NCBI GenBank assembly: GCA_900554615.1
Contig: USIB01000002.1
Location: 1-44,557 of the forward strand
Reading direction: 5' to 3'
Source of the DNA: an uncultured Mycoplasmatota bacterium
GTDB taxonomy: Bacteria > Bacillota_I > Bacilli_A > RF39 > UBA660
DNA: 44,557 nucleotides
The notes below the pieces were generated by a model. That model ran no database searches. It was given only the letters and a program-made list of their open reading frames with translations, and was not told the DNA's origin. Each line of letters begins with the position of its first letter. The stretch's first letter is position 1. Positions 3,222 to 44,484 of the stretch are shown one piece after another. The position numbers were made by a program, and so were the translations under genes.

Positions 3222-3250
3222 AAAGACTTGGAATAATTATCCAAGTCTTT
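3222..3250 (-). terminator. Hairpin overlapping the yqeY stop codon
   Basis: AAAGACTTGGA (3222-3232) / TCCAAGTCTTT (3240-3250), an 11-bp perfect stem. The U-run is short on the minus strand. Confidence 0.5.
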
Positions 3251-4485: not shown

Positions 4486-4911
4486 TCACTTCCTTAATAT
4501 ATATTTTATTATTTTTTTATTTTCTTTTATTAGCCTTAAATCTAATGTTAAATTATTATACTTATATTTATTTGGAAGATTTAATTCTAATATTATTATT
4601 TGATATGTTCTTTTATTATCTGTAATATATTTTCTATCTATTTCCTTTATTTTATATTTATATTCTTCTTTATCTATTATAATAGTATCATTTTTGGTTA
4701 TATATTTTATATCCTCTAGGGGGACAATTATTTTTATAGAGTAGTCTTCTTCGGATAATACTATTCCTCTTACTTTGTAATATATTTTATAATTAAATAG
4801 TATAGCAAATGTAATTAGGGAAAGTATTGTTATTATTATTATCATTATATAAATATATACATAGTATTTTATTTTTCTTTCTAGTATTATTTCTACATCT
4901 ATATGATTCAT
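4486..4911 (-). CDS. Miniature bacteriocin-export accessory protein (single TM, HlyD/LcnD-like role inferred)
   Basis: 141 aa with one N-terminal TM helix (YVYIYIMIIIITILSLITFAILF). The start overlaps the ABC stop (ATGA). The function is inferred from position only. Confidence 0.5.
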   Translation of the reverse strand: MNHIDVEIILERKIKYYVYIYIMIIIITILSLITFAILFNYKIYYKVRGIVLSEEDYSIKIIVPLEDIKYITKNDTIIIDKEEYKYKIKEIDRKYITDNKRTYQIIILELNLPNKYKYNNLTLDLRLIKENKKIIKYILRK

Positions 4912-6989: not shown

Positions 6990-7019
6990 TTTACCTCCTC
7001 TTATTATTTTTTCTTATAT

Positions 7020-7163
7020 TTATCTTTTGGTTGTTAGTTCATTTAGTAGGTCCATTAGACAACACTTGCAATTTTCTCCTTGTTCTTCTGTTTCTTCTTG
7101 CTCATCTTTTTTCTCTTCTAGTTCTTTTGCTAATTCTTTTTCAATGAATATTGTTAAATACAT
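7020..7163 (-). CDS. 47-aa acidic peptide with CxCC motif, first ORF of the bacteriocin operon
   Basis: Hand translation gives MYLTIFIEKELAKELEEKKDEQEETEEQGENCKCCLMDLLNELTTKR. The 16 nt AGGAAGTGAAAAAATG (SD plus start) is identical to that of precursor A. It ends 30 nt before the ABC start. Confidence 0.45.
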   Translation of the reverse strand: MYLTIFIEKELAKELEEKKDEQEETEEQGENCKCCLMDLLNELTTKR

Positions 7164-7591
7164 TTTTTCACTTCCTTTCTTTTTGTTTTTTTATTGATAG
7201 ACACTTCGTCCCGTGCGCCTCACCTCCTTCATATATTAAATACTCCAATTTTTTCGTGTTTTGCCAAAATTACGATAATTTGTTTAAAAAAGTTGAAAAA
7301 GCATACAAAAAACGAACGTAAAATTAACTTCTAGTTAATAATTTGACTCATTTTTGACTATTTTGAGTTATCCACAGGGGGCCTAGAAAAACATGTTTTG
7401 AGGGATGTACCTATTTTATTGGTAAGATTATTACCTAAAATGTATATTTTATACCAATACTAAAAAGTGCAAATAGTAACCTCTATTTACCATCTTACAA
7501 AACTTTTTTATAAAAATATACTTAGATTTCACTGGAAACATAAACCCATTTATGATTGAAATAGATAAGAAAATGTTAAGAAAATAAATTA

Positions 7592-7862
7592 ATGAAAAGA
7601 TACGAAATTAGAGGTAAGCAGGTAATGTTAGATTGTGATGTAGTATTTCTTTTTGATTATCAAACTAAAAAATCAAATAGAAATGTAAAAAATAGTATTG
7701 AAAGGTTTCCTGAAAATTATTGCTTTAGGCTAAATGAATAAGAATATGAATTCTTGAGGTGAAAAAATTGCACTTCAAGTAACAACAAAAAAAGTCCATA
7801 CATTTCTGTATGAAACTTTTTTGACGACTCACGACTTCAAAAGTTTCCTGAGTACTAATCAA
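7592..7862 (+). pseudogene. Decayed ORF6N (KilA-N superfamily) gene, N-terminal part
   Basis: MKRYEIRGKQVMLDCDVVFLFDYQTKKSNRNVKNSIERFPENYCFRLNE*EYEFLR*KNCTSS matches the IRGxQVMLDxDLA..TK.LN..VKRNxxRFPxDFxFQL core of ORF6N as I recall it. Two in-frame stops (7739, 7760) are followed by loss of frame. Confidence 0.6.
7824..7862. repeat. 39-nt direct repeat, left copy, flanking the Abi gene
   Basis: ACGACTCACGACTTCAAAAGTTTCCTGAGTACTAATCAA matches 8782-8820 at 35 of 39 positions. Confidence 0.85.
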
Positions 7863-7885
7863 TATTATTATATACTTTTTTAATT

Positions 7886-8767
7886 TTAATTATTCCTATA
7901 AAATCCCATTAAATGTAAAATAATATCTATATTTACTGATTTTATTTTAATTTCTAATTTATTTATTTCCATATCTATTAATTTTTTTAATTCTAAACTT
8001 TTTTCTTCATCTAATAAAACTTGCATAGATTTCATAATCATATATAAATTTGTTGAATTATTTTTATTTATATAATTCTTATCAATATCTTTAAATGTTA
8101 ATAAAAATTTGCTATGAAACGAAAATAATCTATCATTATGAGCACATATATTTCTAATCATTGTCATATTCTTCATAATTTGTTTTAGTAATTTATCAGA
8201 TATTTTAAATTCTTTGCTTATCATTTGTCTATCTGATTGCTTTAGCATAGTATATAATCTACTTAATTCACCAAGTGTTAATATTTTTGTTAATACAAAT
8301 GGCGGAACAAACCCATATTCATTAATATAATGAGTCAATGCTTCATGTTTACCATTTTGTTTTTCTATTTCTTCTTTTATTTTTTCTATTGACTCCTCAA
8401 TAATAGAATTATTAACACTATTATCAAAGTTATCTACCACTAAATAATTTTGTATACCATACTTTTCTGATATAGTTTCTGCTAATAGAGATTTAATAAT
8501 AGTTTCAATATCAAGAATATATTTTAAAAATATAAATCTAATATTTTTATCAAATTCATATAAAGCATATATTTCATCAAAGGATACATTCTTTTTATAA
8601 TTATTATCAACAGTCTTAAAAACATCTTTATAACTATTTATAATTGAATAATAAGAATATTTTTTAATTTTATTTATTGTATCTTCTTTATTAGAAATAA
8701 TTACCCCTTTAGTAATCAAATATTCCACTAATTCATTTGGATTTTTATATTGTTTCAAGATTATCAC
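7886..8767 (-). CDS. Abi_2 family abortive-infection protein (AbiD/AbiF-like)
   Basis: 293 aa. LYEFDKNIRFIFLKYILDIETIIKS and IRNICAHNDRLF match the FD..LR...iE and RN.cAH motifs of the Abi_2 family. Confidence 0.8.
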   Translation of the reverse strand: MIILKQYKNPNELVEYLITKGVIISNKEDTINKIKKYSYYSIINSYKDVFKTVDNNYKKNVSFDEIYALYEFDKNIRFIFLKYILDIETIIKSLLAETISEKYGIQNYLVVDNFDNSVNNSIIEESIEKIKEEIEKQNGKHEALTHYINEYGFVPPFVLTKILTLGELSRLYTMLKQSDRQMISKEFKISDKLLKQIMKNMTMIRNICAHNDRLFSFHSKFLLTFKDIDKNYINKNNSTNLYMIMKSMQVLLDEEKSLELKKLIDMEINKLEIKIKSVNIDIILHLMGFYRNN

Positions 8768-8820: not shown

Positions 8821-9000
8821 CATAAATATACCATATTTACTATCAATAGTCAATACTTTTGGCTTAATTTTTTAAACATGGTATATCAACTAATTTATAT
8901 TTAATTTTTTTTAAAGATTTAGGTAATAAATGTTTTGCTATTACTAAGATAGTAGAGGATAATATATTAAAAGAATTATTAGATAAACTTTAAAAATATT

Positions 9001-9065
9001 ATGATGAAGACTAGAATAGGCTTCATCATACCACGGAAGACTTATTTTATATAAGGCTGAAGGGG
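9001..9065. repeat. Tandem double-hairpin intergenic repeat, copy E2
   Basis: ATGATGAAGACT-agaat-AGGCTTCATCAT, then CCACGGAAGACTTAT..ATAAGGCTGAAGGGG. It lies 21 nt past the PBP stop codon. Confidence 0.8.
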
Positions 9066-9086: not shown

Positions 9087-11255
9087 TTACTCTTTATTTA
9101 AATCAAAAAACTTATTTACTACTTTAGCAGATATTCTTTTTGTAACAGCGGACTGACTAGAGTTTGGTACACTTACATCAGGAGAAACTACTACGATACT
9201 CATCTTAGGATTTTCACTAGGTGAATAGCCGACAAATGATGAAGTTATTGTCTCAGTATCTACTTTTCCATCTTCATTTGTATCAATAAAACTTTGACTT
9301 GTTCCTGTTTTTCCTGCTGATAAAGTATAATTTCCCATATATCCATATCCTAGTCCATATTGTACTACACTACTAAAGCCTTCTCTTACTCTATTTATGT
9401 ATTTTTCTTCTACTGACAGACTACTTATTACTTTTGTTTCTGCCTTATATGTTAATGAGCCTAACTTATCCCCTGTCTCACTTGCATTATATACTTCTTT
9501 TAATAAGTATGGCTTTAATCTCTTTCCACCATTGGCTATGGTATTTATATATTGTGATAATTGTATTGGTGTATATGTATCATACTGACCTATTGAGAAG
9601 TCTAATAAATGTCCTGGTAGTTTACTTGTTCCCATGTATCCTAAACTTTCTACAGGAAGGTCTATTCCTGTTTTTATTCCAAGTCCAAACTCAGCATACA
9701 TATCTCTATATTTTTTAAAGGCATTGCTATCTAAAGATAGACTTTTATTGTACTCATATGTTCCTTTACCTACTTTGATAGCTATCTTATATTGATATAC
9801 ATTTGATGAATATGCTAAAGCATATATGTCGTCGATATCTCCCATTGTTCTCCATGAACATTTCTCTGGTGTATCTTTTATCTTCAGACATTCATCATAT
9901 ATATGACTTCCTATATCAATAGCACCATATTTATACCCTACCATCATTGAGGCTCCTTTTACTACTGAGCCTGGTGTTACGGGAAGGGTTACGATTCCTG
10001 GAGTATAGTCTACAATATACTTTGAGCCATCTTTTTCTAATACTTGCTTTCCGCTCATTGCTAGTATCTCTCCTGTATTTGGGTCCGCTACTACGGCAAA
10101 AGAACGGTTGTAGTAGTCTGTTCCAGCTTCGCCTTTGGCATTATATACTTCTTCGGATAGTACTTCTTCTAGGTACTTTTGAAGATTTATATCTATTGTT
10201 AGGACTATATCGCTTCCTCTTTTTCCTTCACTTACTAATTCATAACTATTATCTGATAATAGTCTATACTTGGCTTTTGTTCCTTTTAGATAGTCTTCAT
10301 ATTGATATTCTAAATATGATATTCCTACTCTATCATCTAGGGAGTATCCTTTCTTTAAATAGACTTCTGCTAGTTCTGATGGTATTCCTTGACTATTTGA
10401 TGAGACACTTCCTAATATACTCTTGAATGTATCTCCATATGGATATACTCTTTCCCAATCTAACTTGGTATTAAAGCCTTTTAGGTTATCTATATTTTCA
10501 CTTATATAAGCATATTCTTCTTCAGTTACTTCTTTATTTTTTATTACTTTTTCGGCATATGAGTAACCTCTATTCATTAAGTAATAGATGTATGCGGCTT
10601 TTTTATCTCTCTCGGTATATTCTTTTATTTCTTCTTCTAGTCTTTCATAGATAAGTTTTTCTATATCTTTATCACTTAGTTTTCTCTTTTTGTATTGGTC
10701 CCACTCTTCTTCGGTTATCTTGCCCTGACATTCTTTATAATGGCCTTTGTAATAGAAGGTCTTTAGTCTATCGGTAGTAACACGAGAATAGTCTATATCT
10801 ATATTGTCTCCTACTACATAGGCTAATTCTATTTCTTCTTTTGCTGTTATATTCTTTTCTTTTTTATAATATATTGTCTTTACGGCTTCGTTGTCGACTA
10901 GTAGATTATAATTTCTATCATATATTCTTCCTCTTGGTACACTTGATGATTCTACTGTTTTTTCAGTAGACATTGCTAACTTTTCTTTATAGTAGTCTTC
11001 TTTTATTACTTGAAGATAGAATACTCTTCCTAATATTATGATATATAGTATTATTACTACTATGAAAAGGATACTATATCTTTTATCTACTATTTCGATT
11101 AATGTTCTTTTGTCTTCTTTTTTGGTTTTGTTTATTGGTTTATTTTTCTTCTTTATTTCTTTTGTATATTTCTTTTTATTTGGTTTATTTATCTTTCTTT
11201 TCACTAATATCCCTCTATTCATTATTATTATATCATATTTATTATAATTATACAT
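9087..11255 (-). CDS. Penicillin-binding protein 2 type transpeptidase (PBP2B/SpoVD-like)
   Basis: N-terminal TM helix. SxxK (GSVVKG), SxN (YSSNVY) and KTG (GKTGTSQ) motifs occur in the expected order. The exact start is uncertain (ATG at 11255 or 11222). Confidence 0.9.
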   Translation of the reverse strand: MYNYNKYDIIIMNRGILVKRKINKPNKKKYTKEIKKKNKPINKTKKEDKRTLIEIVDKRYSILFIVVIILYIIILGRVFYLQVIKEDYYKEKLAMSTEKTVESSSVPRGRIYDRNYNLLVDNEAVKTIYYKKEKNITAKEEIELAYVVGDNIDIDYSRVTTDRLKTFYYKGHYKECQGKITEEEWDQYKKRKLSDKDIEKLIYERLEEEIKEYTERDKKAAYIYYLMNRGYSYAEKVIKNKEVTEEEYAYISENIDNLKGFNTKLDWERVYPYGDTFKSILGSVSSNSQGIPSELAEVYLKKGYSLDDRVGISYLEYQYEDYLKGTKAKYRLLSDNSYELVSEGKRGSDIVLTIDINLQKYLEEVLSEEVYNAKGEAGTDYYNRSFAVVADPNTGEILAMSGKQVLEKDGSKYIVDYTPGIVTLPVTPGSVVKGASMMVGYKYGAIDIGSHIYDECLKIKDTPEKCSWRTMGDIDDIYALAYSSNVYQYKIAIKVGKGTYEYNKSLSLDSNAFKKYRDMYAEFGLGIKTGIDLPVESLGYMGTSKLPGHLLDFSIGQYDTYTPIQLSQYINTIANGGKRLKPYLLKEVYNASETGDKLGSLTYKAETKVISSLSVEEKYINRVREGFSSVVQYGLGYGYMGNYTLSAGKTGTSQSFIDTNEDGKVDTETITSSFVGYSPSENPKMSIVVVSPDVSVPNSSQSAVTKRISAKVVNKFFDLNKE

Positions 11256-11619: not shown

Positions 11620-12531
11620 TCAATTATTTCTTATTTTATTTATTAATTCTTTATCAAACTCTTTATTTTTTATCATTTCTATTTCATATTTATATGGTGG
11701 ATATATCTTTTCTTTAGAATTATCTTCTTTTGTTACATATGGGGTTTCTAGTATTTTTGGTACTTCTTCTAATCTTTTATTATAAATAATATTAATTAAA
11801 TTATCAAAGCCTATTGTTCCAAATCCGATATTCTCATGTCTATCTTTATGGCTATTTATATTGTTTTTACTATCATTTATATGTATACATTTTATTTTAT
11901 TTACTCCTACTAAGTTATCAAATGTATCTAATAGTTTATTAAAATCTACTAAGTCATATCCTGCGTCATTTAAATGACAGGTATCTAGACAAACTCCTAT
12001 TTTATCTTGATATTTTACTTTATCTATTATTTGTTTTAATTCTTCAAATGTCTTTCCTACTTCATTTCCTTTTCCTGCCATTGTTTCAAGTAAAATTGTT
12101 ACATCATAATCGTTATCTAGTATTAGATTTAAACCTTTACTTATATTACTTATAGCGTCTTCTCTTGTTGTATTGACTGCAGATCCTGGGTGTAATACTA
12201 GATATTTTACTCCTAATGTATGACATCTTTCTACTTCATTTATTAGAAATGATACAGAGAAATCAAAGTTATTAAAATTGGCTAAGTTTACTATATATGG
12301 TGCATGTACTATTACTTTTTCTAAGTCGATATTATTTTCTTTCATTAATTTATATGCTTCCATAGTAAGAGCATCTTCTATTTGTCCTCTATTTGTGTTT
12401 TGTGGGGCTCCTGTATAGAACATAAATGTATTTGCATTATAACTAAGTGCTTCTTTTACACTCCCAAGTAATTGGGTATCATTCTTATATGATACATGGC
12501 TTCCTATTATTAATTTCATATTATTTATCAC
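11620..12531 (-). CDS. nfo: Endonuclease IV
   Basis: 303 aa. HAPYIVNLA, LVLHPGS, LETMAGKG, CLDTCH and HINDSK metal-ligand motifs of the Nfo TIM barrel. Confidence 0.9.
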   Translation of the reverse strand: MINNMKLIIGSHVSYKNDTQLLGSVKEALSYNANTFMFYTGAPQNTNRGQIEDALTMEAYKLMKENNIDLEKVIVHAPYIVNLANFNNFDFSVSFLINEVERCHTLGVKYLVLHPGSAVNTTREDAISNISKGLNLILDNDYDVTILLETMAGKGNEVGKTFEELKQIIDKVKYQDKIGVCLDTCHLNDAGYDLVDFNKLLDTFDNLVGVNKIKCIHINDSKNNINSHKDRHENIGFGTIGFDNLINIIYNKRLEEVPKILETPYVTKEDNSKEKIYPPYKYEIEMIKNKEFDKELINKIRNN

Positions 12532-12587: not shown

Positions 12588-12652
12588 CACTCTAAGCCTT
12601 AATGTCTTAGAGTGTTAGTTTAAGCCAATATATTTTTATTGTCTTAAACTAA
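12588..12652. repeat. Tandem double-hairpin intergenic repeat, copy E5 (opposite orientation: AGCC..GTCT on + strand)
   Basis: CACTCTAAGCC-ttaat-GTCTTAGAGTG, then TTAGTTTAAGCC-14 nt-GTCTTAAACTAA. Confidence 0.85.
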
Positions 12653-12705
12653 TATATCAGCCATATCTACTTTATAGAAGCATATACTATATACTAAAAT
12701 TGAGT

Positions 12706-16125: not shown

Positions 16126-17325
16126 TTAATTTATACTATTTACTTCTATAGTATTATCCATATTCTTAATAACACTAGCATACTTATTATATACTCTTTC
16201 ATAATCACTAAGATATGTTTTTATATCTGGATTAGAAAGTGGTATTACTTTATAATTTTTATTATTCTTAGAGTATGTATATATTAGTTCATTAGTTTGA
16301 TTACTTAATTTTATACTTGTATTATTATCTTTATCAATATGTTTTGTTATTTTTACTGTACTAAGTAGTCCTACTGTAGTATTATAATCAATATTAGTTT
16401 CTTGAGCTGAAAGGAAATTACCTAAAGAATATACTACTAAAGTATCATTTATATATGTAACTGGCATTACTACGTGTGGATGTGTTCCTATTATAATATC
16501 TACTTTCTCTTCTGATAAAAAGGAAGCCATATCTAATTGATAATTTGTTGGAATATGGGTATATTCTACTCCCCAGTGCATTGCTACGATTAATACATCT
16601 ACTTTATCTCTTACTCTTTTTATATCTTCTTTTACTTTTTCTTTATATTCTTGATACTTAGTATCTGATTCTAAATTATTTCCAGTACAAGGCCATACAT
16701 TTACTAAATATTCTTTTCCTTCTGGTACTTTAATTCCATTTGTTCCATAAGTATAATTTAACATTGTATAAGTTATATTATTTACTTCTTTTATTCTTAC
16801 TTTATCTCTTTCTTCAAAAGATAAATAGCTTCCTACCGCTAAGACAGATGGGTGCTCATTCCAATAATTTACTGAGTTTGTTATTGCTTTTTCTCCTCTA
16901 TCTAGAGTATGATTAGTGGCTAGACTTACTAAATTAAATCCTGCATCTATCATAGCGTCTCCTACTTCATATGGTGAATTAAATGAAGGATAACTAGATA
17001 GTCCTATTTCCTCTCCTCCTAGTATTGTCTCTTGATTATAGTAGGCTATATCATATTCTTTTACTATATCTTTTATATATGTTAAAGCAGGTTTAAAATC
17101 ATAACCATTACTTGTTTTCATTGCATTATATAATCTATCATGTACTAATAAATCTCCAACCATAACTAAACTTGCACTATATTCTTTTGGTTTTTCTTCT
17201 TCCTTTACTTCTATCTTATTATTACTACTTGATAATTTATTATATCCATAGTGGAAACCTGCAATTGCTACTAGCAATAGTAGTACTATTATTACTATTT
17301 TATTCTTTTTCTTTCTTCTTCTCAT
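16126..17325 (-). CDS. CapA/PGA_cap family metallophosphoesterase-like membrane protein
   Basis: N-terminal TM helix. MVGDLLVHD, ATNHTLDRG, HWGVEY, GTHPHV and GNF motifs. Confidence 0.8.
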   Translation of the reverse strand: MRRRKKKNKIVIIVLLLLVAIAGFHYGYNKLSSSNNKIEVKEEEKPKEYSASLVMVGDLLVHDRLYNAMKTSNGYDFKPALTYIKDIVKEYDIAYYNQETILGGEEIGLSSYPSFNSPYEVGDAMIDAGFNLVSLATNHTLDRGEKAITNSVNYWNEHPSVLAVGSYLSFEERDKVRIKEVNNITYTMLNYTYGTNGIKVPEGKEYLVNVWPCTGNNLESDTKYQEYKEKVKEDIKRVRDKVDVLIVAMHWGVEYTHIPTNYQLDMASFLSEEKVDIIIGTHPHVVMPVTYINDTLVVYSLGNFLSAQETNIDYNTTVGLLSTVKITKHIDKDNNTSIKLSNQTNELIYTYSKNNKNYKVIPLSNPDIKTYLSDYERVYNKYASVIKNMDNTIEVNSIN

Positions 17326-17396
17326 TATATACCTCTTATTCCTACTGAAAGATTTTTCACTATTTGGTAAAATCTTTCACTACAGCCATATTGTTT

Positions 17397-17450
17397 AAAA
17401 GGAAGACCTTAGGCTTCCTTTTACCTTTGAAGACCAAAGGGCTTCAAAGG
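17397..17450. repeat. Tandem double-hairpin intergenic repeat, copy E3
   Basis: AAAAGGAAGACC-tt-AGGCTTCCTTTT, then CCTTTGAAGACC-aaa-GGGCTTCAAAGG. It lies 5 nt past the stop of RNase R paralog 2. Confidence 0.9.
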
Positions 17451-17455
17451 ATATA

Positions 17456-19504
17456 TTATCTTTTTTTAACTTTCTTCTTACTAGAAGTATACTCTATATT
17501 TCTATTACTTTCTCTATTAAAAGTTATATCACCAGTATAAGTATCAACTTTAACTACTCTAACTCTAATAAAATCTCCTACTAATATTCTCTCATTAGAA
17601 TTAATACCATATAAAGAGAATCCATCTTTAAGATTATATTCATGTTTACTAATAAATACTTTACCCTCTATCATATTAGGAAGTAATACTTTAATATATT
17701 CATTACTAACCTCTGATACTAAACCATCAAAATCATAACCAATATATTTCTCCATATGTTCGGCTTTCCTAATATCAGTAGTACTTCTCTCTACTTTATC
17801 TGCTCTTCTCTCTGCACTAGTAGCCATATCTGCAAGTTTAGGTAGTAATACTAACCATTTCTTTCTAGCATAATTGTCTCCATAAGTAATAGAGTCCATT
17901 AATACTCTCTGATTAATTAAATCACATCTTCTAATGGGAGAACTAAAGGTAGCATAAGCAGGTACTCCTATGGCAAAATGTCCTATATTATAAGCACTAT
18001 ATTTTGCTTTTGATTGGCCTTTTATAGCATAACTATCAAGAATAACTCTCTCTTTACTATCTTTATATAAGTTTAATCTATCTATAATCTCTCTACTAGA
18101 GAAATCACTCATTTTAGAAGGATTATATCCTCTTTCTTTAAGTAAATGATTCCAAGAAGATAACTTATTTCTATTAGGCTCATCATGATTTCTAGCAATA
18201 AATGGTAGTTTATGTTTTATAAAATAATCAGTAAGAACTAAATTATGTAATATCATTAAAAACTCTATTAAATCTTCTGCTTTACCTTGATATCTCTTTT
18301 TTATATTCTTTGTCTTATTATTCTCTAATATAACCTTAACTTCACTACTGGTAAAATCTAAGAATCCATTCTTTAACATATCATCTTTAATAAGTTTAGC
18401 AACTTCATATAGTCTATCTAACTCTTTAGTATAGTCTTCATAACCCTCTATTACACTATTTCTTTCTAGATAACTATTAACTTCATCATAAGTCATACGC
18501 TTCCTACTATTAATAATTGAAGGACTTACTCTATAAGAGATAACTTTACCTTTATTATCTACCTTAACAACTGAAGTAATAGTAAATCTATCTTCTCCTG
18601 GTATTAATGAACATATTCCATTTGAAATATAATGATGTAAATAGGGATTAACCATACCAGGAGGGTATACGGATATTCCTCGATTCATTGTCTCATCCCA
18701 TATCTTAGTACCATCTTTGATATACTTACAGACATTAGCAATACTAATATAAATATCATCATTATATACTCCGATGGCGTCATCAAAGTCTTTTGTATCG
18801 TCTCCATCTATTGTTGTCATAGGAATATCTCTTAAATCAATAGTTCCTTCTCTTTTAGCAGTCTCTATTTCTCTACTCGTAACCTTATTTGGTATTTTCC
18901 TAAGTTCTTCCATATATTCATTACTAAAACTAATAGGAAAACCGTTTTCTAATAATATTTCTTTTTCTCTAGTACCTAAGTCATCTTTATGACCAATTAC
19001 TTCTTTAATTTCATTAGTCTTACCATCTATTAAAACTTTAGTACCAATGGGATATATTTTATCTAAAATAATATCTTCTTTATCTTTACTTCTAACTAAA
19101 TAGTATTTACCTTCCTTAATAACTTCTCCAATATAATTATGATATTCTCTTTTTAGTATCTTAACTACTTTAGCGGTAACTCCTGATGTGTCTACTAGTA
19201 CGATATCATGGTTTTCTAAAGACTTATGGTCTTTATATACTACATCTAATTCTGTTTTATCATCAAATACTACTATTGGTCCTTTTCTCTTAGTAACCTT
19301 AATCTTACCTTTTTTTAAAGTGGTATTAGAAGTAAGGGTATATTTTCCTTTCTTATCTCGAAAGATGATACCCTCTTCTTCTAATACTTTGATAGACATC
19401 ATAAATCTCCTGCTATCATGAGTATCTAATGCTTTAGATATATCTTCTAACTTCATAATTTTATTCTTTTTCATACTAAGTAATGTAACTATACTGCTTT
19501 CCAT
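17456..19504 (-). CDS. RNase R/RNase II family exoribonuclease, paralog 2
   Basis: 682 aa. RNB motif TTIDGDDTKDFDDAIGV, HFAIG...FSSPIRRCDLINQR (one residue shorter than the canonical RRYPDL), S1 domain and a Lys-rich tail. Confidence 0.85.
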   Translation of the reverse strand: MESSIVTLLSMKKNKIMKLEDISKALDTHDSRRFMMSIKVLEEEGIIFRDKKGKYTLTSNTTLKKGKIKVTKRKGPIVVFDDKTELDVVYKDHKSLENHDIVLVDTSGVTAKVVKILKREYHNYIGEVIKEGKYYLVRSKDKEDIILDKIYPIGTKVLIDGKTNEIKEVIGHKDDLGTREKEILLENGFPISFSNEYMEELRKIPNKVTSREIETAKREGTIDLRDIPMTTIDGDDTKDFDDAIGVYNDDIYISIANVCKYIKDGTKIWDETMNRGISVYPPGMVNPYLHHYISNGICSLIPGEDRFTITSVVKVDNKGKVISYRVSPSIINSRKRMTYDEVNSYLERNSVIEGYEDYTKELDRLYEVAKLIKDDMLKNGFLDFTSSEVKVILENNKTKNIKKRYQGKAEDLIEFLMILHNLVLTDYFIKHKLPFIARNHDEPNRNKLSSWNHLLKERGYNPSKMSDFSSREIIDRLNLYKDSKERVILDSYAIKGQSKAKYSAYNIGHFAIGVPAYATFSSPIRRCDLINQRVLMDSITYGDNYARKKWLVLLPKLADMATSAERRADKVERSTTDIRKAEHMEKYIGYDFDGLVSEVSNEYIKVLLPNMIEGKVFISKHEYNLKDGFSLYGINSNERILVGDFIRVRVVKVDTYTGDITFNRESNRNIEYTSSKKKVKKR

Positions 19505-19517: not shown

Positions 19518-21677
19518 TTAGTTGTTATTATTTTTTTTCTTTTTCCCTTTATTCTCCTCTTTCTCATCATATACTTCGAAGTCTATTTCTGATTTATCTT
19601 TATCTGCTCTTACTACTCTAATGGTAATTTTATCTCCAAAAGCATACTTCTTCTTACTCTTCTTTCCTACTAGAGCCATCATATCACTATCATATATGTA
19701 ATAGTCGCCTTTTATATTCTCTACTTTTATTAAGCCTTCTACTGTGTTATCTAGTTCTACAAAGATACCAAACTCTTGTACTCCGGAGATTATTCCTTCA
19801 TATATTTCTCCTATATGGTCCATCATATATTCGGCTTTCTTCATTTTGTCGACATCTCTTTCACAGTTCTGAGCGTCTTGTTCTCTAATTGAACAATGTT
19901 CACTCTCTATTGGTAAGGCTTCTCTTGCTTCTGCGATTACTTTTTCACTATAGTTGTAGTTGTAATTTTTTAATAGTCTATGTAATATTAAATCTGGATA
20001 TCTTCTGATAGGAGAAGTAAAATGGCTATAGCACTTACTTCCTAAGCCAAAGTGGCCTATATTTATATCAGAATAAACGGCTTTTGATTGACTTCGAATA
20101 GCCATATCGTGTAATACTCTAACTTCTGGTACTTCTTCTAGTTGTTTTAATATATGTTGTAAGTCTTTAGGAGAGTCTATCTTACTCTTTCCATTTACTA
20201 CATATCCATGAAGTGATAAGAACTTCATAAAGTCTCCTAGTCTCTTTTCATCTGGTTTATCATGAACACGATATATACCTGGTAGATTTTTATAGTAGAT
20301 TGAACTTGCTACTGTCTCATTAGCCGCTATCATAAAGTTCTCGATTAGTTCTTCACCTGTTCTTTGTACTCTAGCCTCTATCTCTATTGGATGACAAGCA
20401 TCATCTACTTTAATCTTAGCCTCAGTACTTTCAAACTCTATATATCCTCTACCTATCATTTTTTTTCTAAGTATCTTGGATAACTCTTCCATTAGTCTTA
20501 GAGTGTCTTCATATGGTTTATATTCATCACTAGGATTATTTTCTTCTAGTAACTTATTTACTTCTTCATATGTCATTTTCTTTCTACTTCTTATTATTGA
20601 CTTGAATATTTGATAACTTGTTATATTTCCTTTATTATCTATTATCATTTCACAAGTAAAGGCAAATCTATCTTCATTTTCATTTAGTGAACATATTCCA
20701 TTGGATAACTTATGAGGAAGCATTGGAAGTACTCTATCTACTAAGTAAACACTAGTACCACGAGAATATGCTTCTTCATCTAAGGCTGAGCCTTCTTTTA
20801 CATAATATGAAACATCAGCGATATGGACTCCTAGATGATATTTATTATCTTCACTTTTGGTTAATGATATTGCATCATCTATATCTTTTGTGTCTGCTCC
20901 ATCTATTGTAAATATTTCTTTATCTCTAAGGTCTCTTCTTCCACTTGATAATTCTTTTTTTATTTCTTCTTCGGTTAAATATGATGGAATACTATCTAGT
21001 TCTAGTGCTACTTCTTCTGGAAAGGTTGGACTAAAATTATATTCATAGACAAAGGATAGGATATCTACTCCAACATCATTTTTATGTCCTATTATTTTGA
21101 TTATCTTTCCTACTCTTTTTCCATCTTTTATTGGCTCTACGACTACTTTATGTCCTTCTACTGCTCCATTTAAGTTATCTCTTGGTATATAGATATTTGT
21201 TCCTTTTTTATCTGGTTTTACGAAATAGTCATTATCTATCTTTATTACTTCTCCTACTAAAGGGTCATAATTTCTTTTAATTACTTTAATTATCTTTCCT
21301 TCTGGTCTAGTCATATCTTTATTTAGATATTCAAATAATACTAAGTCTCCGTCCTCTGCACCATTTATATTCTTCTCATTTACATAGACATCTTTTGAAT
21401 CTTTATTTATTTCAATAAAACCAAATCCTTTATCGTTTAGTATAAGATTCCCCTTTACTAAGTGACTATTTTCTAGTAGTAGATACTTTTTCTTCTTTTC
21501 ACTATAATATAAAATGCCATCACTTACTAGACTATCTAATATATTCTCTAGGCTTTGATATTCTTCTATACTTGTAAGTCCAAGCATATCATTTAACTGC
21601 ATTATAGTAAGAGATGTATTTTCTGTTAATTTCTCTATTATTATTTCTTTCACTAAACTCTCCTCCTTTTTATTCAA
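19518..21677 (-). CDS. rnr: Ribonuclease R
   Basis: 719 aa. FTIDGADTKDIDDAISL, HFGL..HFTSPIRRYPDLILHR, S1 domain and a Lys/Asn-rich tail. It sits between secG and smpB as in other Bacillota. Confidence 0.9.
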   Translation of the reverse strand: MNKKEESLVKEIIIEKLTENTSLTIMQLNDMLGLTSIEEYQSLENILDSLVSDGILYYSEKKKKYLLLENSHLVKGNLILNDKGFGFIEINKDSKDVYVNEKNINGAEDGDLVLFEYLNKDMTRPEGKIIKVIKRNYDPLVGEVIKIDNDYFVKPDKKGTNIYIPRDNLNGAVEGHKVVVEPIKDGKRVGKIIKIIGHKNDVGVDILSFVYEYNFSPTFPEEVALELDSIPSYLTEEEIKKELSSGRRDLRDKEIFTIDGADTKDIDDAISLTKSEDNKYHLGVHIADVSYYVKEGSALDEEAYSRGTSVYLVDRVLPMLPHKLSNGICSLNENEDRFAFTCEMIIDNKGNITSYQIFKSIIRSRKKMTYEEVNKLLEENNPSDEYKPYEDTLRLMEELSKILRKKMIGRGYIEFESTEAKIKVDDACHPIEIEARVQRTGEELIENFMIAANETVASSIYYKNLPGIYRVHDKPDEKRLGDFMKFLSLHGYVVNGKSKIDSPKDLQHILKQLEEVPEVRVLHDMAIRSQSKAVYSDINIGHFGLGSKCYSHFTSPIRRYPDLILHRLLKNYNYNYSEKVIAEAREALPIESEHCSIREQDAQNCERDVDKMKKAEYMMDHIGEIYEGIISGVQEFGIFVELDNTVEGLIKVENIKGDYYIYDSDMMALVGKKSKKKYAFGDKITIRVVRADKDKSEIDFEVYDEKEENKGKKKKNNNN

Positions 21678-21703
21678 AAAGACTTAAAAATATATTTTAA
21701 GTC

Positions 21704-21916
21704 TTATAATGATATTATTAAACATAATACAAAGAAAGTAAAACCTAAAACATATGTTAATCTTGTAACAAATAGTTCAAATCCTCTTTCTTTCCTATTT
21801 GCAAACAAATCAGATGTTCCCCCCTGAATTATTTGTGATGCAGATTCTGCTTTACCACTTTGTAGTAAAACGACTGCTATTAATAGTATTGATACAATTA
21901 TTAATGCTATTTCCAT
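21704..21916 (-). CDS. secG: Preprotein translocase subunit SecG
   Basis: 70 aa from the ATG at 21916 (SD AAAGGAAG). Two TM helices and the VLLQSGK motif. Confidence 0.75.
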   Translation of the reverse strand: MEIALIIVSILLIAVVLLQSGKAESASQIIQGGTSDLFANRKERGFELFVTRLTYVLGFTFFVLCLIISL

Positions 21917-22003: not shown

Positions 22004-22059
22004 CAATCTAAGCCTTATTGTCTTAGATTGTCATTTATAGCCTAAAAGTCTATAAATGA
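22004..22059. repeat. Tandem double-hairpin intergenic repeat, copy E6
   Basis: CAATCTAAGCC-ttatt-GTCTTAGATTG, then TCATTTATAGCC-taaaa-GTCTATAAATGA. It lies in a divergent intergenic region. Confidence 0.9.
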
Positions 22060-22406
22060 TTAATTATGGGTGTGACTATTTGGGGTGAAGTGCTTTTTTT
22101 ACTAAATAATTACTTTTCTAACTTTTTCCCTACTTTATAGTGAATTTTATTAGTATTATTTTTACCACAGTATTATCCATTAAATTAACTTTTAGACATA
22201 TAATCATATATTTAAATTAATATACATCCTCTAAATTGATAATAAACGCATACTTTTATATTTCTAATTTTAATATACAAAAATTTGTGATAGAATATAT
22301 ATATGTATAACTTTAACTGATTATTTAACTAGAAATACATTTTCAAGTTAACATATCGGTCAATTTGTTGTATTTTAATTAATTATTTAGTTTAAGAGGT
22401 GGCGAA

Positions 22407-23111
22407 ATGAAAAATTATATAACTATCACAAATGAGTATTTTGAAATATTAATTCCATTATCATTAAAAGAATATGGTGAGGAAGTATTAAATTATTCAA
22501 CAGACAAAGTAAAAGAGTTTTTGTCATTTTTTAGAGAACAAAATTGCGAAAAAATAAAAGGAGCATTTCTAATTAATCATGATGACTTTATTAATAGAAT
22601 TAAAGAGGTATCTGCTCCCAATTCACCATTACCTCCTGAATGGGCTACAGGATGTTTCTATGGCGGAGAAACACAAATATTGCTTAATGAAAATAGCCCT
22701 TATGAAAATTTTAATACACTTGCTCATGAAAGTTTTCATTTACTATTTTCTAAATTTGTCTATAAAAAAAATAACATTGAAAGAATTGTATGGCTTGATG
22801 AATCACTTGCTAATAATTTTGATGGATCAACAGATAAACTAATAAAAGACGGAACATTCAAAAATATTATTATTAAATTAATAAATAATAACAAATTGCC
22901 TAATATGAATGAGTTATCGTTTTCAAAAGGTAATATTATAACAAAAGAATACAATGGCTATGACTTATTTAAAGTTGTTGGAAGATACTTAATAGAAACA
23001 AAAAGTGATTTATTAGATTATATAAATAATAAAGAAAGAATTATAAATGATGGAAAGAAGATTCTCGAAGAGAGCTTAGACTACTTTATATCAAAATATA
23101 ACTTAAAATAA
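22407..23111 (+). CDS. Putative zinc metallopeptidase (HExxH)
   Basis: 234 aa. HESFH with a downstream E (WLDESLA). SD AAGAGGTGG. Confidence 0.45.
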   Translation: MKNYITITNEYFEILIPLSLKEYGEEVLNYSTDKVKEFLSFFREQNCEKIKGAFLINHDDFINRIKEVSAPNSPLPPEWATGCFYGGETQILLNENSPYENFNTLAHESFHLLFSKFVYKKNNIERIVWLDESLANNFDGSTDKLIKDGTFKNIIIKLINNNKLPNMNELSFSKGNIITKEYNGYDLFKVVGRYLIETKSDLLDYINNKERIINDGKKILEESLDYFISKYNLK

Positions 23112-23241
23112 AGGATATTATACATTACTTCTATAATTTTAAACTTGATATTTTTTTATTAATAATAGACAGATATTCTAATAAAAGAAAAAAAGTATCT
23201 GACCTAATTCTTTTCTTTGAACTAGTCAAATACTTTTTTAC

Positions 23242-26170: not shown

Positions 26171-26229
26171 TGTAAGAGAGACAAATAATTTGGCTCTCTT
26201 ACACCACGGAAGACTACAGGCTCCCGTGG
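26171..26229. repeat. Tandem double-hairpin intergenic repeat, copy E4
   Basis: TGTAAGAGAGAC-9 nt-GGCTCTCTTACA, then CCACGGAAGACT-ac-AGGCTCCCGTGG. It lies 22 nt past the yqfD stop. Confidence 0.85.
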
Positions 26230-26251: not shown

Positions 26252-27433
26252 TTAAGAATTAATATCAGTATTTATAACCTCTTTATATGAAGTAATATCT
26301 TCAGTACAAGTAATAAATAAATCTACTAGTATTTTACTAGATAAATCTTCTTCATTAATAACCTTAATATTAGTAATATCTACAATACCTGAATACTTAT
26401 CTAATAGTTTCTCTTTAGCAGTCTCTATAGCCTTCTCTCTAGCAGTATCATATGTATATATATCATTTATAACCTTAGTCTCATATTCATCTTCATAAGT
26501 TAAAGAAAGAGGTATAATATTATTATTAAAAATATATTTTATATTTCTATCAAAGGATTTATATTTATGAAAATCAAAGAATGATATTCTTTTATCTAGT
26601 AAGTTAAAGACTAGTACTTTCTTCTTTTTACCTGTATATATTGTTTCGTTATAAATATAAGGATACTCTACTCTAACTGTATACCAAACCTCTCCCTCTA
26701 CTCTTCCACTTGCAGACTTTGATACTTTACTATTATTTGGAAGTGTTATATCTGAAGATATAATGGTATCTCCTTTTTTTACATAAGTATCTACATTTCT
26801 AACTTTCTCTCCTGATATGGCATATATTTTCTTAATGACTGCATTCTTTGAAGATACTATATCATATACTTTATCATCTATATTATCTTTATTTATTATT
26901 CTCTCTTCTACTCTAACTGTATATTTAGTTCCTTCTCTTATTATTTCTAGCCATTCTAATGTATCTTTATTGTCTTCTAGTATCTTCTTTTTTATTTTTT
27001 CTATTTCTTCATAATCTTTAACAAAACTATATTTTTTTATGCCATTTTTATCTAACTCTTCATTTACTAATTTTATTATGTTGCTATTTGAATGAATTAC
27101 TTCTATACTAAATATGATATTTGATAAGGTATAAATCATAAGCAGTCCTACTAGTAAAAATATTAGAACAAATATATTCTTCTTTATGTATTTTAATAGT
27201 CTTAATTTTCCATAGTATTTTATTATTTTTATATTATATATTGTTTTTAGTCTAAGTACTTTATCTAGTTCGTTATAATCTATTATTATGTACATGGTGT
27301 TATAGGACTTTGGTATAACTTTTTCGATATTTACTTTGTTATTTATTAGTCTTCTTAAGAAATTATCTACATTTCTTCCTTCTATTTTTATTTTTATACT
27401 ACTGTTAAATAGTCTAAATATTTTATCTTTCAT
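26252..27433 (-). CDS. yqfD: Sporulation protein YqfD
   Basis: 393 aa. N-terminus IKIKIEGRNVDNFLRRL, a central TM helix, and adjacency to yqfC. Confidence 0.85.
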   Translation of the reverse strand: MKDKIFRLFNSSIKIKIEGRNVDNFLRRLINNKVNIEKVIPKSYNTMYIIIDYNELDKVLRLKTIYNIKIIKYYGKLRLLKYIKKNIFVLIFLLVGLLMIYTLSNIIFSIEVIHSNSNIIKLVNEELDKNGIKKYSFVKDYEEIEKIKKKILEDNKDTLEWLEIIREGTKYTVRVEERIINKDNIDDKVYDIVSSKNAVIKKIYAISGEKVRNVDTYVKKGDTIISSDITLPNNSKVSKSASGRVEGEVWYTVRVEYPYIYNETIYTGKKKKVLVFNLLDKRISFFDFHKYKSFDRNIKYIFNNNIIPLSLTYEDEYETKVINDIYTYDTAREKAIETAKEKLLDKYSGIVDITNIKVINEEDLSSKILVDLFITCTEDITSYKEVINTDINS

Positions 27434-30973: not shown

Positions 30974-31405
30974 TTATAGATATTTTTTTAGTTCCTCTAC
31001 TGCTTCTTCTCCTAGAGATGTATATTCTTCTGCTAGTTTATGGACTTCTTTATCTAAAGATTTATTATTTAGTATTCTTCTTCCTTCTATGATACCCATA
31101 TTTGTTCCTTGAACTAGTAATTCTGTTAGTTTTGAGTCAGTATCATCTGTCATTGTTTTCATTTCTATACCCCAAAAAGTCATCATTTTTTCCATTTTAT
31201 TTATTTTATGAGGTGTATCATCTTTATTGTATTTTGGATACATATCATTTATCTTCTTAGATATTTCTTTATACTTCTTATTTTGTTTTTCTAGTTCTTT
31301 TTGTAATTTTTTATTTTCTATTTTATCATAAATATATGATATAGCAGTACTACCCATATTACAACCTTTATTTAATTCATCTAATGCATTTATATTATCT
31401 TTCAT
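30974..31405 (-). CDS. Helical-bundle protein (DUF2383/ferritin-like, tentative)
   Basis: 143 aa, all-helical by composition. The family call is tentative. Confidence 0.35.
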   Translation of the reverse strand: MKDNINALDELNKGCNMGSTAISYIYDKIENKKLQKELEKQNKKYKEISKKINDMYPKYNKDDTPHKINKMEKMMTFWGIEMKTMTDDTDSKLTELLVQGTNMGIIEGRRILNNKSLDKEVHKLAEEYTSLGEEAVEELKKYL

Positions 31406-31471: not shown

Positions 31472-31543
31472 CACTACAAGCCTAATTATATTAGTCTTGT
31501 TAGTGCTATTTAGAGCCAATATAAATATATTGTCTCTAAATAG
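31472..31543. repeat. Tandem double-hairpin intergenic repeat, copy E7
   Basis: CACTACAAGCC-11 nt-GTCTTGTTAGTG, then CTATTTAGAGCC-14 nt-GTCTCTAAATAG. Confidence 0.85.
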
Positions 31544-31578
31544 GTATCAACCATACTTATTATATATAAGTATTAACT

Positions 31579-42312: not shown

Positions 42313-42342
42313 AAAAGGTAAGTCATATTTGACTTACCTTTT
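42313..42342 (-). terminator. Intrinsic terminator of the surface-protein gene
   Basis: AAAAGGTAAGTC-atattt-GACTTACCTTTT, a 12-bp stem abutting the stop codon. Confidence 0.75.
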
Positions 42343-44354: not shown

Positions 44355-44475
44355 ATCTTCTACCTCCAACAGAAAAAGACTATGAAAAATCCCTAGTATT
44401 TCTACTAGTTATTTCATAGTCTTTATTATTTATTAAATTACTTATAAAGCCTTTACTTATAAGTCTTGAAAACAT

Positions 44476-44484
44476 CCCCCCCCC
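44476..44484. repeat. C9 (G9 on the coding strand) homopolymer in the leader/promoter region of the surface-protein gene
   Basis: It is the only G/C run longer than 5 nt that I saw in the window. It lies about 120-130 nt upstream of the ATG at 44354. Confidence 0.9.

Follow-up and report, generated by a model that had tools for sequence, protein, structure and literature searches.

Two abutting hairpins, each with a single A·G mismatch near its tip, lie beside the stop codon of a second RNase R gene. This locus raises the question of whether such pairs belong to a dense family in which structure and one fixed mismatch are kept while the stem sequence is free, as the original prediction held, and what kind of element such a family would be. 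The window, which is the whole stretch of 44,557 nt analysed, was considered together with DNA from close and distant relatives and with metagenomic sequence.

Paired hairpins in the window and the anatomy of the unit

All seven predicted loci are present in the window, each with two adjacent hairpins (termed A and B), and both strands of every copy fold as two abutting hairpins with z = -4.0 to -8.0 relative to shuffles. The division of their surroundings also holds, four copies being located 5-29 nt past stop codons and three upstream of promoters or between divergent genes. At the locus of the original finding (copy 3, plus strand), hairpin A (17396-17423) has the sequence TAAAAGGAAGAC-CTTA-GGCTTCCTTTTA and hairpin B (17424-17450; CCTTTGAAGAC..GGCTTCAAAGG) is of the CC type; 5 nt separate it from the stop codon of the second RNase R gene (minus strand, 17456-19504). 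The other stop-proximal copies are likewise on the plus strand beside minus-strand genes. Copy 1 possesses a hairpin A (64-97; TATGAGGAAGAC..GGCTTACTCATA) with one additional G·A mismatch and a degenerate hairpin B (98-133; CCACGTAAAAC..GGTTGAAGTGG), the end of which is 29 nt from the stop of the gene at 163-609. In copy 2 (hairpin A, 9000-9030), hairpin B (9031-9065; CCACGGAAGAC..GGCTGAAGGGG) contains a 3x3 purine internal loop (GGA/GAA) and is 21 nt from the stop of a PBP gene (9087-11255), while in copy 4 (hairpin A, 26171-26203) 22 nt separate hairpin B (26204-26229; CCACGGAAGAC..GGCTCCCGTGG) from the yqfD stop codon (gene at 26252-27433).

Copies 5, 6 and 7 are on the minus strand. Hairpin B of copy 5 (12588-12614; CACTCTAAGAC..GGCTTAGAGTG), which is of the CA type, sits 13 nt upstream of the promoter -35 of the minus-strand gene 11620-12531, followed by hairpin A (12615-12652) and an upstream box (12653-12681; GCTTCTATAAAGTAGATATGGCTGATATA). 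Copy 6 (hairpin B, 22004-22030; hairpin A, 22031-22059) has its B hairpin upstream of the conserved secG promoter (21971-21943), at a distance of 32 nt from the -35. Hairpin B of copy 7 (31472-31505), with one bulge or mismatch, is 66 nt upstream of where the minus-strand gene 30974-31405 starts; hairpin A (31506-31543) and an upstream box (31544-31570; CTTATATATAATAAGTATGGTTGATAC) complete this copy.

The apex G-A-C..loop..G-G-C, in which an A·G mismatch is enclosed by a G-C and a C-G pair, had been predicted for all 14 stems and is found in 13 of them; in the second hairpin of copy 1 (98-133) it is lost (AAC…GGT). Copies 2 and 7 also have extra internal mismatches in hairpin B. A suggested eighth copy at 44444-44470 has only five of nine basal pairs, was missed by a relaxed scan that detected in the window no copy beyond the seven, and is no copy, or a decayed one at most.

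Across the family, hairpin A takes the form T+N7+A-GAC..loop..GGC-T+N7+A, with a 9-bp basal stem and a T…A foot, and hairpin B the form C+N5+AA-GAC..loop..GGC-TT+N5+G, with an 8-bp basal stem and a C…G foot. Within a unit the two are in direct tandem, in identical orientation and with a spacer of 0 nt. When units were anchored on B only, an A hairpin was found at offset zero in 33 of 33, with 9/9 basal pairs in 29 and 8/9 in the other four. Approximately half of the units also have a 5′ box of about 30 nt, GCTTATA-TATAAT-AGA(TATGGYTGATAT), the hexamer of which is seen in 31 of 63 unique doublets as TATAAT (25) or TATGAT (6), so that only position 4 varies. The box lies at one of two preferred distances from A, either 4-8 nt or 13-16 nt, and in the long box a TTGAT or CTGAT string is situated directly 5′ of A. 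An A-rich stretch usually follows B. Non-orthologous copies have subfamily variants of box, A and B in common, and the only sequence shared by all copies is AGAC/GGCT; restriction-site avoidance (GAAGAC/AGACC) was considered in this regard.

Covariation, clade restriction and turnover of the units

For a non-circular test of pairing and covariation, a DNA pattern with the stems left free was used. This retrieved at least 55 unique doublets from low-GC metagenomic contigs, 34 of them fully paired, compared with 1-5 of nine pairs in A and 3-6 of eight in B for the chance matches of the same pattern on high-GC contigs (n = 15). In this set 97.9 % of cells are paired, two-sided changes occur in 247 cells against 65 in shuffles, and the covariation score is 0.60 against 0.12, a value reached by none of 500 shuffles; sliding the register of the stems lowers pairing to 22-57 %. 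The A·G mismatch is invariant in this family. As predicted, the family is dense and keeps its structure and one mismatch while the stem sequence is left free. Compensatory change can also be followed at single loci, with a G-C to A-T exchange in the orthologs of site 3 hairpin B in L008 and L028 and with double changes between L110 and L184 and between L149 and L166, which by their common flanks are apparently the same locus in each case.

The further mismatches found within stems are concentrated at positions 5-6 of B and, on the GAC..GGC strand, comprise 20 purine·purine and no pyrimidine·pyrimidine cases, an asymmetry from which it follows that one single strand matters. By analogy, conservation of structure and one mismatch corresponds to the logic of known protein-read hairpins and would suit recognition by shape.

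A strict descriptor matched 53 hairpins when applied to 253 kb of DNA from close relatives. Applied to distant relatives of matching GC (935 kb) and to some of the nearer ones (166 kb), it matched none. At least about 100 further true copies came from metagenomes, all on contigs of 23-31 % GC and many of them in human-gut assemblies. The density is seven units per 44.5 kb in the window, about 0.1-0.3 per kb in the RNase R-anchored clade loci and about 0.15 per kb in unbiased loci; extrapolation of the last figure to a 1.46-Mb genome gives an estimated 150-250 copies per genome. None of the 63 unique doublets examined was internal to an ORF. A BLAST search of plasmid and phage collections with a consensus unit gave no match, and in a scan of viral contigs 13 of 14 matches were chance matches on contigs of higher GC; the single genuine doublet (L209) has genes for secreted proteins around it, without obvious phage genes. 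A full-text literature search with 14-mer apex sequences returned no paper.

At orthologous sites, units of 77-130 nt are either there in full or missing altogether. L005 has an insertion of about 130 nt (box, A, B and tail) within the T-run of a terminator, which L007 is without, and L029 has a 77-nt insertion after a stop codon, which is lacking in L005, L006 and L007. Upstream of secG and ProRS, different lineages have different units. From these two filled-versus-empty comparisons no terminal repeat, target duplication or target sequence could be clearly defined; the pair in the terminator T-run has a possible TCTTTTT duplication, and the target is not common to both pairs. Copying of A stems from the insertion target was considered and rejected, there being no excess of direct or inverted matches in the 100-nt flanks over permuted controls. 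A SINE-like retrotransposition, suggested by the A-rich tail and the insertion into a T-run, was also dropped; the only apparent target duplication has the wrong polarity, and the box would not be copied as it would lie upstream of its own start site.

Decay of units is also evident. L009 and L068 have one unit in 22 kb and, at the ortholog of site 3, a single perfect hairpin (AAAAGGAAGTC..GACTTCCTTTT), while in L007 the B mismatch of this site has drifted to A·A. The long persistence of units with conserved stems at orthologous sites is explained no worse by a host function than by selfish spread.

Gene-ward polarity and possible roles of the units

Units are located between housekeeping genes in both orientations, and in about 46 of 53 cases it is the B end that is directed towards the closest gene. 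In CC-type doublets B usually begins about 20 nt or less from a stop codon. Neighbouring units are back to back (B′A′..AB) in 27 of 66 pairs, and in 9 of 9 pairs closer than 150 nt. With respect to replication strand (GC skew) there is no bias, as the forward strand of the unit coincides with the C-rich strand for 78 units and with the G-rich one for 64 (four against three in the window).

The preferred reading, given a probability of about one half, is that of a lineage-restricted, high-copy, non-coding intergenic repeat family of the REP/REPIN/MITE kind with units read by a protein. One strand, most likely that with the A·G mismatches, would fold as single-stranded nucleic acid, be it single-stranded DNA or RNA, and a clade-specific protein would read the hairpin geometry and the fixed mismatch near the tip, and not the stem sequence. 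By analogy with other protein-read hairpins, such a structure-specific reader is probable. It would maintain the family, whether through the copying or conversion of units or through some use made of them, and with its loss the elements would decay or become "repaired" into ordinary perfect hairpins. Units would persist at harmless or useful edges of transcription units, just past stops or terminators and just upstream of promoters, with B towards the gene. Most units are not plain terminators, though a number of those close to a stop codon probably have an additional role as 3′ hairpins or weak terminators. Counting against such a REP-like, protein-read model is the diversity of the stems, which is far above that of known REP families. 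Also against it are the failure to find a partner gene in the fragmentary DNA searched (see below), the lack of clearly defined terminal repeats, target duplication or target sequence, A arms that do not derive from the flanks, and an orientation independent of GC skew.

A possible, though rather unlikely, alternative is that the units act on RNA as boundary elements. Here the outward-facing pair of 3′ hairpins (B′ then A′, GCC..GUC) would terminate or stabilise the RNAs leaving a transcription unit at either end, with the mismatch read by an RNA-binding protein or RNase particular to the clade. The gene-ward direction of B, the closeness of CC-type B hairpins to stops and the back-to-back preference would all suit this, as would the finding that in 30 of the 52 doublets with both neighbouring genes called the adjacent mRNA would read B′A′. 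Several units have a T-run 3-6 nt past A′, and the perfect hairpin retained by L009 at site 3 resembles a terminator. However, the suggestion that the stop-proximal copies may double as terminators fared poorly, as a simple terminator scan passed over all seven window copies on both strands and only two of the four stop-proximal copies (1 and 2) have a T-run after the stem, beginning 3-4 nt past it. The promoter-proximal copies have no T-run on either side. Moreover, many copies outside the window come after a distinct canonical terminator, which often falls between the stop codon and the unit and would leave the unit largely untranscribed. The purine·purine bias would become pyrimidine·pyrimidine on the functional RNA, which is possible but leaves the single fixed C·U unexplained, and whole-unit insertions and subfamilies would not be expected of terminators arising de novo.

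A distinctly unlikely variant combines polarity with protein reading. It supposes that a clade-specific protein unrelated to the Y1/HUH transposases reads the A·G hairpins, on an extruded DNA strand or on nascent RNA, as oriented boundary marks at the two ends of transcription units, B always being turned to the gene, so that they serve as an insulator or roadblock against incoming transcription, with the A stem kept perfect by arm-to-arm correction.

It is also quite improbable that the units are small RNA genes or portable promoter/leader modules, in which the TATAAT of the box would be a -10, transcription would start 5-16 nt before A, and hairpins A and B would form the RNA body or a 5′ stabiliser. 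Such modules would account for the box hexamer with its one variable position, for the two preferred distances from A and for the purine·purine internal loops on the box strand, and behind some units there is a canonical terminator pointing the same way (e.g., L029 17603 and L027 21162). Nevertheless, this terminator is not consistent, the A-rich stretch being the usual sequence after B, half of the units have no box, and neither a -35 nor an extended -10 is conserved. Box-bearing units also lie tail-on to the 3′ ends of convergent genes, where transcription would be antisense. TATAAT-like strings are common at 26 % GC, and promoter-like sites are not enriched over shuffles. No Rfam family matches the units; at gathering score the whole window yielded only two tRNAs, and around copy 5, at E up to 10, the best matches had E of about 7-8, none of them relevant.

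Very doubtful is the possibility that the units are miniature derivatives of IS200/IS605 elements, with A as the left-end and B as the right-end hairpin, or attC-like sites moved by a known single-strand recombinase. As with the ends of IS200/IS605 elements, PATEs and MITEs, two imperfect hairpins lie on one strand with a fixed unpaired feature; in IS200/IS605 the enzyme reads the hairpins as single-stranded DNA, with stem irregularity a part of recognition. Whole-unit presence or absence would fit mobility, and the TTGAT found 5′ of A in the long box is the target of ISDra2. In spite of this, the hairpins touch, with nothing between them, their stems vary from copy to copy, there is no defined target tetra- or pentanucleotide, and the lack of a GC-skew orientation is unlike single-stranded transposition on the lagging-strand template. 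The parallel with IS200/IS605 drawn originally also suffers from the partner search, in which tblastn with approximate queries (IS200 TnpA, IS608 TnpA and E. coli RAYT) found no homolog near units in about 1.3 Mb of element-bearing DNA from many genomes, in fragments that could easily miss a single-copy gene. The one IS200-like gene detected is in L079, a distant relative without the elements, and its end hairpins are GC-rich and unrelated to A and B. With attC sites the units share the retention of structure and unpaired bases with sequence left free, and one folded strand as substrate; however, they occur in both orientations among housekeeping genes without a one-way cassette array, and no integrase is present among the Pfam families listed for L001-L004 or among eight scanned proteins. 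An ORF6N-domain gene recurs among the genes enclosed by facing units and was considered as a partner; it is not convincing, as this recurrence may reflect one orthologous region.

Chance hairpins in AT-rich, low-complexity intergenic DNA can be set aside almost entirely, for although AT-rich inverted repeats are common at 26 % GC, the descriptor matched 53 times in 253 kb and not once in 1.1 Mb of equally AT-rich relatives, covariation exceeded all 500 shuffles and the geometry is constant (9 bp and 8 bp, with 0 nt spacing).

Comparison with known repeat systems

The best-understood repeats of the REP type are those of Proteobacteria, in which the reader is a domesticated transposase that recognises a sequence tag together with a mismatched hairpin. 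The hosts here are uncultured, small-genome, low-GC gut Bacilli, in which only geometry and one mismatch are kept, in a direct-tandem architecture. A partner protein, should there be one, would count as a new reader of nucleic acid specific for structure, and the family would be a clean natural test of shape versus sequence recognition. The strict descriptor also supplies a sharp metagenome marker for the clade, and the units flag edges of transcription units and insertion hot spots in genomes so far uncultured.

Intrinsic terminators resemble the units in that many copies are stop-proximal, some with a T-rich run after them, and in that the L009 ortholog is an ordinary perfect hairpin. They differ in the fixed mismatch, the doubled hairpins, the missing or displaced T-run and the position of many units upstream of promoters or past a real terminator.

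The pneumococcal BOX and RUP elements, bcr1 of Bacillus cereus and the Correia elements are modular non-coding units of 60-150 nt with tens to hundreds of copies. These are gene-adjacent, occur in both orientations, fold stably and sometimes have promoter- or terminator-like signals. What identifies them is conserved sequence and, in most of these families, terminal inverted repeats together with target duplications. In the present family, by contrast, it is structure, one mismatch and strict stem lengths that are conserved, and no terminal repeats were found.

REPs and REPINs, known from E. coli and Pseudomonas together with their transposase-like RAYT (TnpA_REP) protein, are also short extragenic imperfect palindromes, of 20-40 nt and with more than 100 copies per genome; the units here number a few hundred per genome by extrapolation. 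Both are clade-restricted, patchy among relatives, persistent at orthologous sites and located after genes. In the E. coli REP a mismatched bulge (C:A + A:G) is required for RAYT binding, while randomising the stem abolishes it (PMC3479197). The REP/RAYT parallel of the original prediction is retained for the dense extragenic family and for the fixed mismatch inside the stem, by analogy with which protein reading is proposed here. It does not extend to a GTAG or CGTC head, to inverted pairing or to a RAYT gene, none of which was found in the units or the DNA searched. The feet are T…A (A) and C…G (B), with no GTAG or CGTC in the flank logos, and the hairpins, inverted in REPINs and BIMEs, are here in direct tandem without a spacer. 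REP stems are conserved in sequence, whereas those of the units are hypervariable, with the conserved part at the tip and not the foot, and half of the copies have the additional 30-nt box. On the best reading, and by the features tested, these units are thus members of neither REP/RAYT nor IS200/IS605 and constitute a new, REP-like repeat family.

Anatomy of the paired hairpins

The doublets, each a unit of two abutting hairpins (A followed by B), form a real, statistically solid and previously undescribed REP-like family. Two adjacent hairpins were borne out at all seven predicted loci of the window, namely 64-133 (copy 1), 9000-9065 (copy 2), 17396-17450 (copy 3), 26171-26229 (copy 4), 12588-12652 (copy 5), 22004-22059 (copy 6) and 31472-31543 (copy 7). 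If the strand reading GAC..GGC is termed forward, copies 1-4 are forward on the plus strand and copies 5-7 on the minus strand, in agreement with the two orientations proposed. The apex motif which the original prediction assigned to all 14 stems is present in 13, having been lost from hairpin B of copy 1 (98-133), while the suggested eighth copy at 44444-44470 was not upheld, as only five of its nine positions pair when read from the sequence and a relaxed scan recovered no further copy. Folding of the seven copies gave two abutting hairpins on both strands, with z-scores of -4.0 to -8.0.

The anatomy of the doublet is stricter than was first noticed. In the canonical hairpin the basal stem leads through a G-C pair to the A·G mismatch, which a C-G pair closes on the far side; beyond this pair come 1-6 bp of apical stem and the loop. 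Longer apical stems covary (GAC-T..A-GGC, GAC-A..T-GGC, GAC-C..G-GGC), which favours a 1x1 mismatch over a bulge. Hairpin A has a basal stem of 9 bp with T as its first base and A as its last, and hairpin B a stem of 8 bp beginning with C and ending with G; there is no spacer between them, the base after A being the C of B in 20 of 21 unique cases. Hairpin A is AT-rich and highly variable and B is better conserved, with additional internal mismatches in B of copies 2 and 7. A search anchored on the B consensus alone found an A hairpin at zero offset in 33 of 33 cases, 29 with 9/9 pairs and four with 8/9.

Basal-stem mismatches beyond the fixed A·G, read on the forward strand of 68 unique doublets, comprise 20 purine·purine and no pyrimidine·pyrimidine cases, the remainder being five T·G and eight C·A or A·C. 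These concentrate at positions 5-6 of B, the site of a GGA/GAA internal loop in one subfamily. Such asymmetry is not expected of duplex-palindrome recognition and points to a role in single-stranded form, as DNA or RNA, with either strand conceivable.

Occurrence, covariation and turnover

The strict descriptor (at least seven perfect basal pairs plus GAC..GGC) gave 53 matches in 253 kb of close relatives and none in 935 kb of relatives with equal GC content whose RNase R is at most 56 % identical, confirming that copies occur beyond chance. Some nearer relatives (73-81 % identity) were likewise without a match over 166 kb. GAC..GGC is as frequent in the 253 kb as the commonest Watson-Crick triplets. 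A metagenome scan used a pattern shown to be specific, in which AGAC, GGCT and some bases at the junction are the sole fixed letters, and matched at least 119 loci. Among the matches listed, about 100 were contigs of 23-31 % GC with properly paired hairpins, many contigs of this GC range carrying human-gut assembly labels, and no properly paired hairpins were present in high-GC contigs. The same listed matches include 55 unique low-GC loci, 34 fully paired at pattern-free positions and 21 with 1-3 mismatches, and 15 high-GC chance matches, in which 1-5 of 9 (A) and 3-6 of 8 (B) positions pair. For the unique low-GC set of these listed matches, standard pairs fill 97.9 % of cells, both-sided changes number 247 cells vs 65 in shuffles, and pairing drops to 22-57 % when the register is slid. 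For this set the covariation score reaches 0.60, compared with 0.12 in shuffles, none of 500 being as high.

Gain and loss involve entire units. Between a pilin-like gene and the next gene in one relative (L005), about 130 nt, made up of the box (a 5′ segment of about 30 nt with TATAAT), A, B and a tail, interrupt the T-run of a terminator which is unbroken in L007, L009 and L020. In L029, 77 nt consisting of B′, A′ (the hairpins read on the opposite strand) and a T-rich tail sit directly behind the stop of a PGA_cap-family gene and are absent in L005, L006, L007 and L024. The upstream regions of secG and ProRS carry differing units or none by lineage, beside the same conserved promoters. Particular box, A or B variants are shared in mixed combinations by non-orthologous copies, suggesting copying and recombination among units. 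A stems copied from flanking DNA were also considered, an idea without support when flanks were compared.

A stems of loci with the same flanks in different strains differ by fully compensated changes (L110 vs L184; L149 vs L166). At the orthologous position of copy 3, a G-C pair of B has become A-T by a double change in L008 and L028, the mismatch of B is now A·A in L007, and no hairpin is present in L010. L009 and L068 (83 % RNase R identity), which have one unit in 22 kb, carry here a single perfect hairpin AAAAGGAAGTC..GACTTCCTTTT replacing AAAAGGAAGAC..GGCTTCCTTTT and B. This decay series indicates that the hairpin can persist as an ordinary one once the mismatch is no longer kept, and we infer that lineages in which the family persists have some factor of their own that maintains the mismatch.

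Genomic context and transcription

The genes of the window (44.5 kb, 25.9 % GC) are of ordinary Firmicute kinds, for housekeeping and sporulation, and include those for AddAB-type helicase-nuclease proteins, PBP, SmpB, SecG, ProRS, two RNase R paralogs, YabP and YqfD. One contig of MAG GCA_900772265.1 is identical to the window over 22 kb; the named relatives closest to it are 'Firmicutes bacterium CAG:321', 'Clostridium sp. CAG:302' and a large number of uncultured 'Bacilli'/'Tenericutes' MAGs, among these the complete 1.46-Mb chromosome CP091726.1. The RNase R-type genes stand in tandem after secG (17456-19504 and 19518-21677, both minus strand), the first with OB, CSD2, RNB and S1 domains and the second, missing in L012, L014, L017, L021 and L022, with RNB and only a weak S1. 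The secG promoter lies within 6-30 nt of the ProRS end in most relatives; the window has about 1.2 kb inserted between them (22060-23241), with copy 6 at the insert edge and an unannotated gene for 234 aa (22407-23111, plus strand) with an HESFH motif. L004 is about 100 % identical to the window and encodes the second RNase R without any difference; beyond window position 22274 its content is instead an HTH gene and a MunI-type restriction gene. In L006, about 300 nt upstream of ProRS, a separate 39-nt repeat (CTAGCCAATTGCGACAACATTGTTGTCGCAATTGATATA) containing a perfect palindrome occurs twice within about 170 nt and has no relation to the mismatched doublets. An accessory island flanked by housekeeping genes (4486-8767), with copy 2 at its right edge, encodes a bacteriocin-type ABC transporter with an apparent peptidase domain (4908-6989), an Abi_2 abortive-infection gene (7886-8767) and an ORF6N remnant. 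Nine consecutive C at 44476-44484 (G9 when the minus strand is read) precede by about 110 nt a gene for a large, repeat-containing, secreted protein (42342-44369, minus strand) and may be a slipped-strand (phase-variable) tract.

No unit lies inside an ORF among the unique doublets examined. As predicted, copies 1-4 follow stops of minus-strand genes by 5-29 nt and copies 5-7 lie upstream of promoters or starts, copies 5 and 6 at 13 and 32 nt before the -35 and copy 7 at 66 nt before the start codon. The promoters downstream of copies 5 and 6 (gene 11620-12531 and secG) are good sigma-A-type promoters, that of secG being kept in every relative alignable across the region. Where both neighbours were called (52 doublets), 30 doublets lie between two genes that are both on the strand opposite to the doublet, 12 between two genes on its own strand, five between divergent and five between convergent genes. 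In about 46 of 53 doublets the B end is the one closer to a gene, and 27 of 66 neighbouring unit pairs are back-to-back (B′A′..AB), as are all nine pairs closer than 150 nt; transcription units therefore tend to be bracketed, with B ends inward.

ORF6N-domain genes, often tandem or truncated and some with a C-terminal HDRF..D..HSGASF motif, lie between or beside units in L016 (2386-3273), L018, L019, L027, L093, L165 and L198; the window has a KilA-N gene after copy 7 (31645-32508) and the ORF6N remnant (7601-7747) 1.25 kb from copy 2. Insertion of mobile genes into the same intergenic hot spots may be the reason. The sole true doublet on a contig labelled viral is at 11485-11537 of L209 (IMGVR_UViG_3300045988_179395), a doubtful label as neighbouring ORFs encode signal-peptide-bearing secreted proteins.

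It is possible, if unlikely, that the doublets act as RNA boundaries. The related proposal that stop-proximal copies double as terminators holds partly at best: a T-run follows copies 1 and 2 only, beginning 3-4 nt past the stem, and a consensus scan called none of the seven window copies on either strand, nearby ordinary terminators being called. T-runs are absent on both sides of promoter-proximal units. For many metagenomic units a canonical terminator (hairpin and T-run) intervenes between stop codon and unit, and such units appear to sit in untranscribed spacer before the next promoter.

Other hairpins were also seen. Perfect ones with AAGTC..GACTT or AAGAC..GTCTT (e.g., AAAAGGTAAGTC-ATATTT-GACTTACCTTTT) occur at 42313-42342, 3222-3250 and 21679-21705; the first shares its 'corrected' apex with the copy 3 ortholog of L009 and may once have belonged to the family or be an ordinary terminator. 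A hairpin with a 12-bp stem, TGAAAGATTTT..AAAATCTTTCA (17346-17379), separates copy 3 from the start of a PGA_cap-family gene (16126-17325, minus strand); it is kept in L007, L028 and L029 and altered in L009, and may be a 5′-leader structure of that gene.

CC-type units have B as CCNNNNAAGAC..GGCTTNNNNGG and unconserved flanks, B mostly beginning less than about 20 nt from the stop codon of an opposite-strand gene. CA-type units have a near-constant B (CACTCTAAGAC-CTTA-GGCTTAGAGTG or CACTAAAAGAC..), a hypervariable A (TTNNNNNNAGAC) and usually the upstream box, GCTTATA-TATAAT-AGA, to which TATGGYTGATAT may be added. Of 63 unique doublets, 31 carry this box, its end lying 4-8 or 13-16 nt from A; copies 5 and 7 of the window have one. 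A small-RNA or promoter reading of the doublets is improbable; the box offers TATAAT, and no conserved -35 was seen upstream of it.

Candidate partner and known systems

The working hypothesis, given a probability of roughly one half, is that a putative clade-specific protein would recognise the mismatched hairpin on one strand, the units being tolerated or put to use at the edges of transcription units. Searches by tblastn with approximate queries (IS200 TnpA, IS608 TnpA, E. coli RAYT) gave no match in about 1.3 Mb of element-bearing fragments from many genomes, where a single-copy gene is easily missed. The sole match, in the distant relative L079, which has no elements, was an IS200-like gene with unrelated end hairpins. 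An ORF6N-domain gene is unconvincing as partner; it is unit-flanked in several loci, but perhaps all are one orthologous region.

No Rfam family matches the units, the consensus unit had no match in plasmid and phage collections, and no paper in the full-text collection searched contained the apex 14-mers. Compared with intrinsic terminators, the doublets fail the tested terminator features, and by arrangement they do not fit the cassette array of integron attC sites. The suggested IS200/IS605 parallel failed on the features tested, unit orientation having no dependence on GC skew (78 vs 64).

The REP stem of E. coli has a mismatched bulge (C:A and A:G) whose correction abolishes RAYT binding, as does stem randomisation, and its 5′ GTAG is essential for that binding (PMC3479197). 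Membership of the REP/RAYT systems, also suggested originally, fails on the tested features, since the doublets lack a GTAG or CGTC tag, have hairpins in direct tandem where REPs form inverted pairs, and tolerate almost any stem sequence; no RAYT is known for them. However, like REPs, they are short extragenic imperfect palindromes of a high copy number by extrapolation, clade-restricted and long-persisting, with a fixed stem irregularity. REP/REPIN elements are the nearest known kind to the doublet family, which plausibly works in a REP-like manner.
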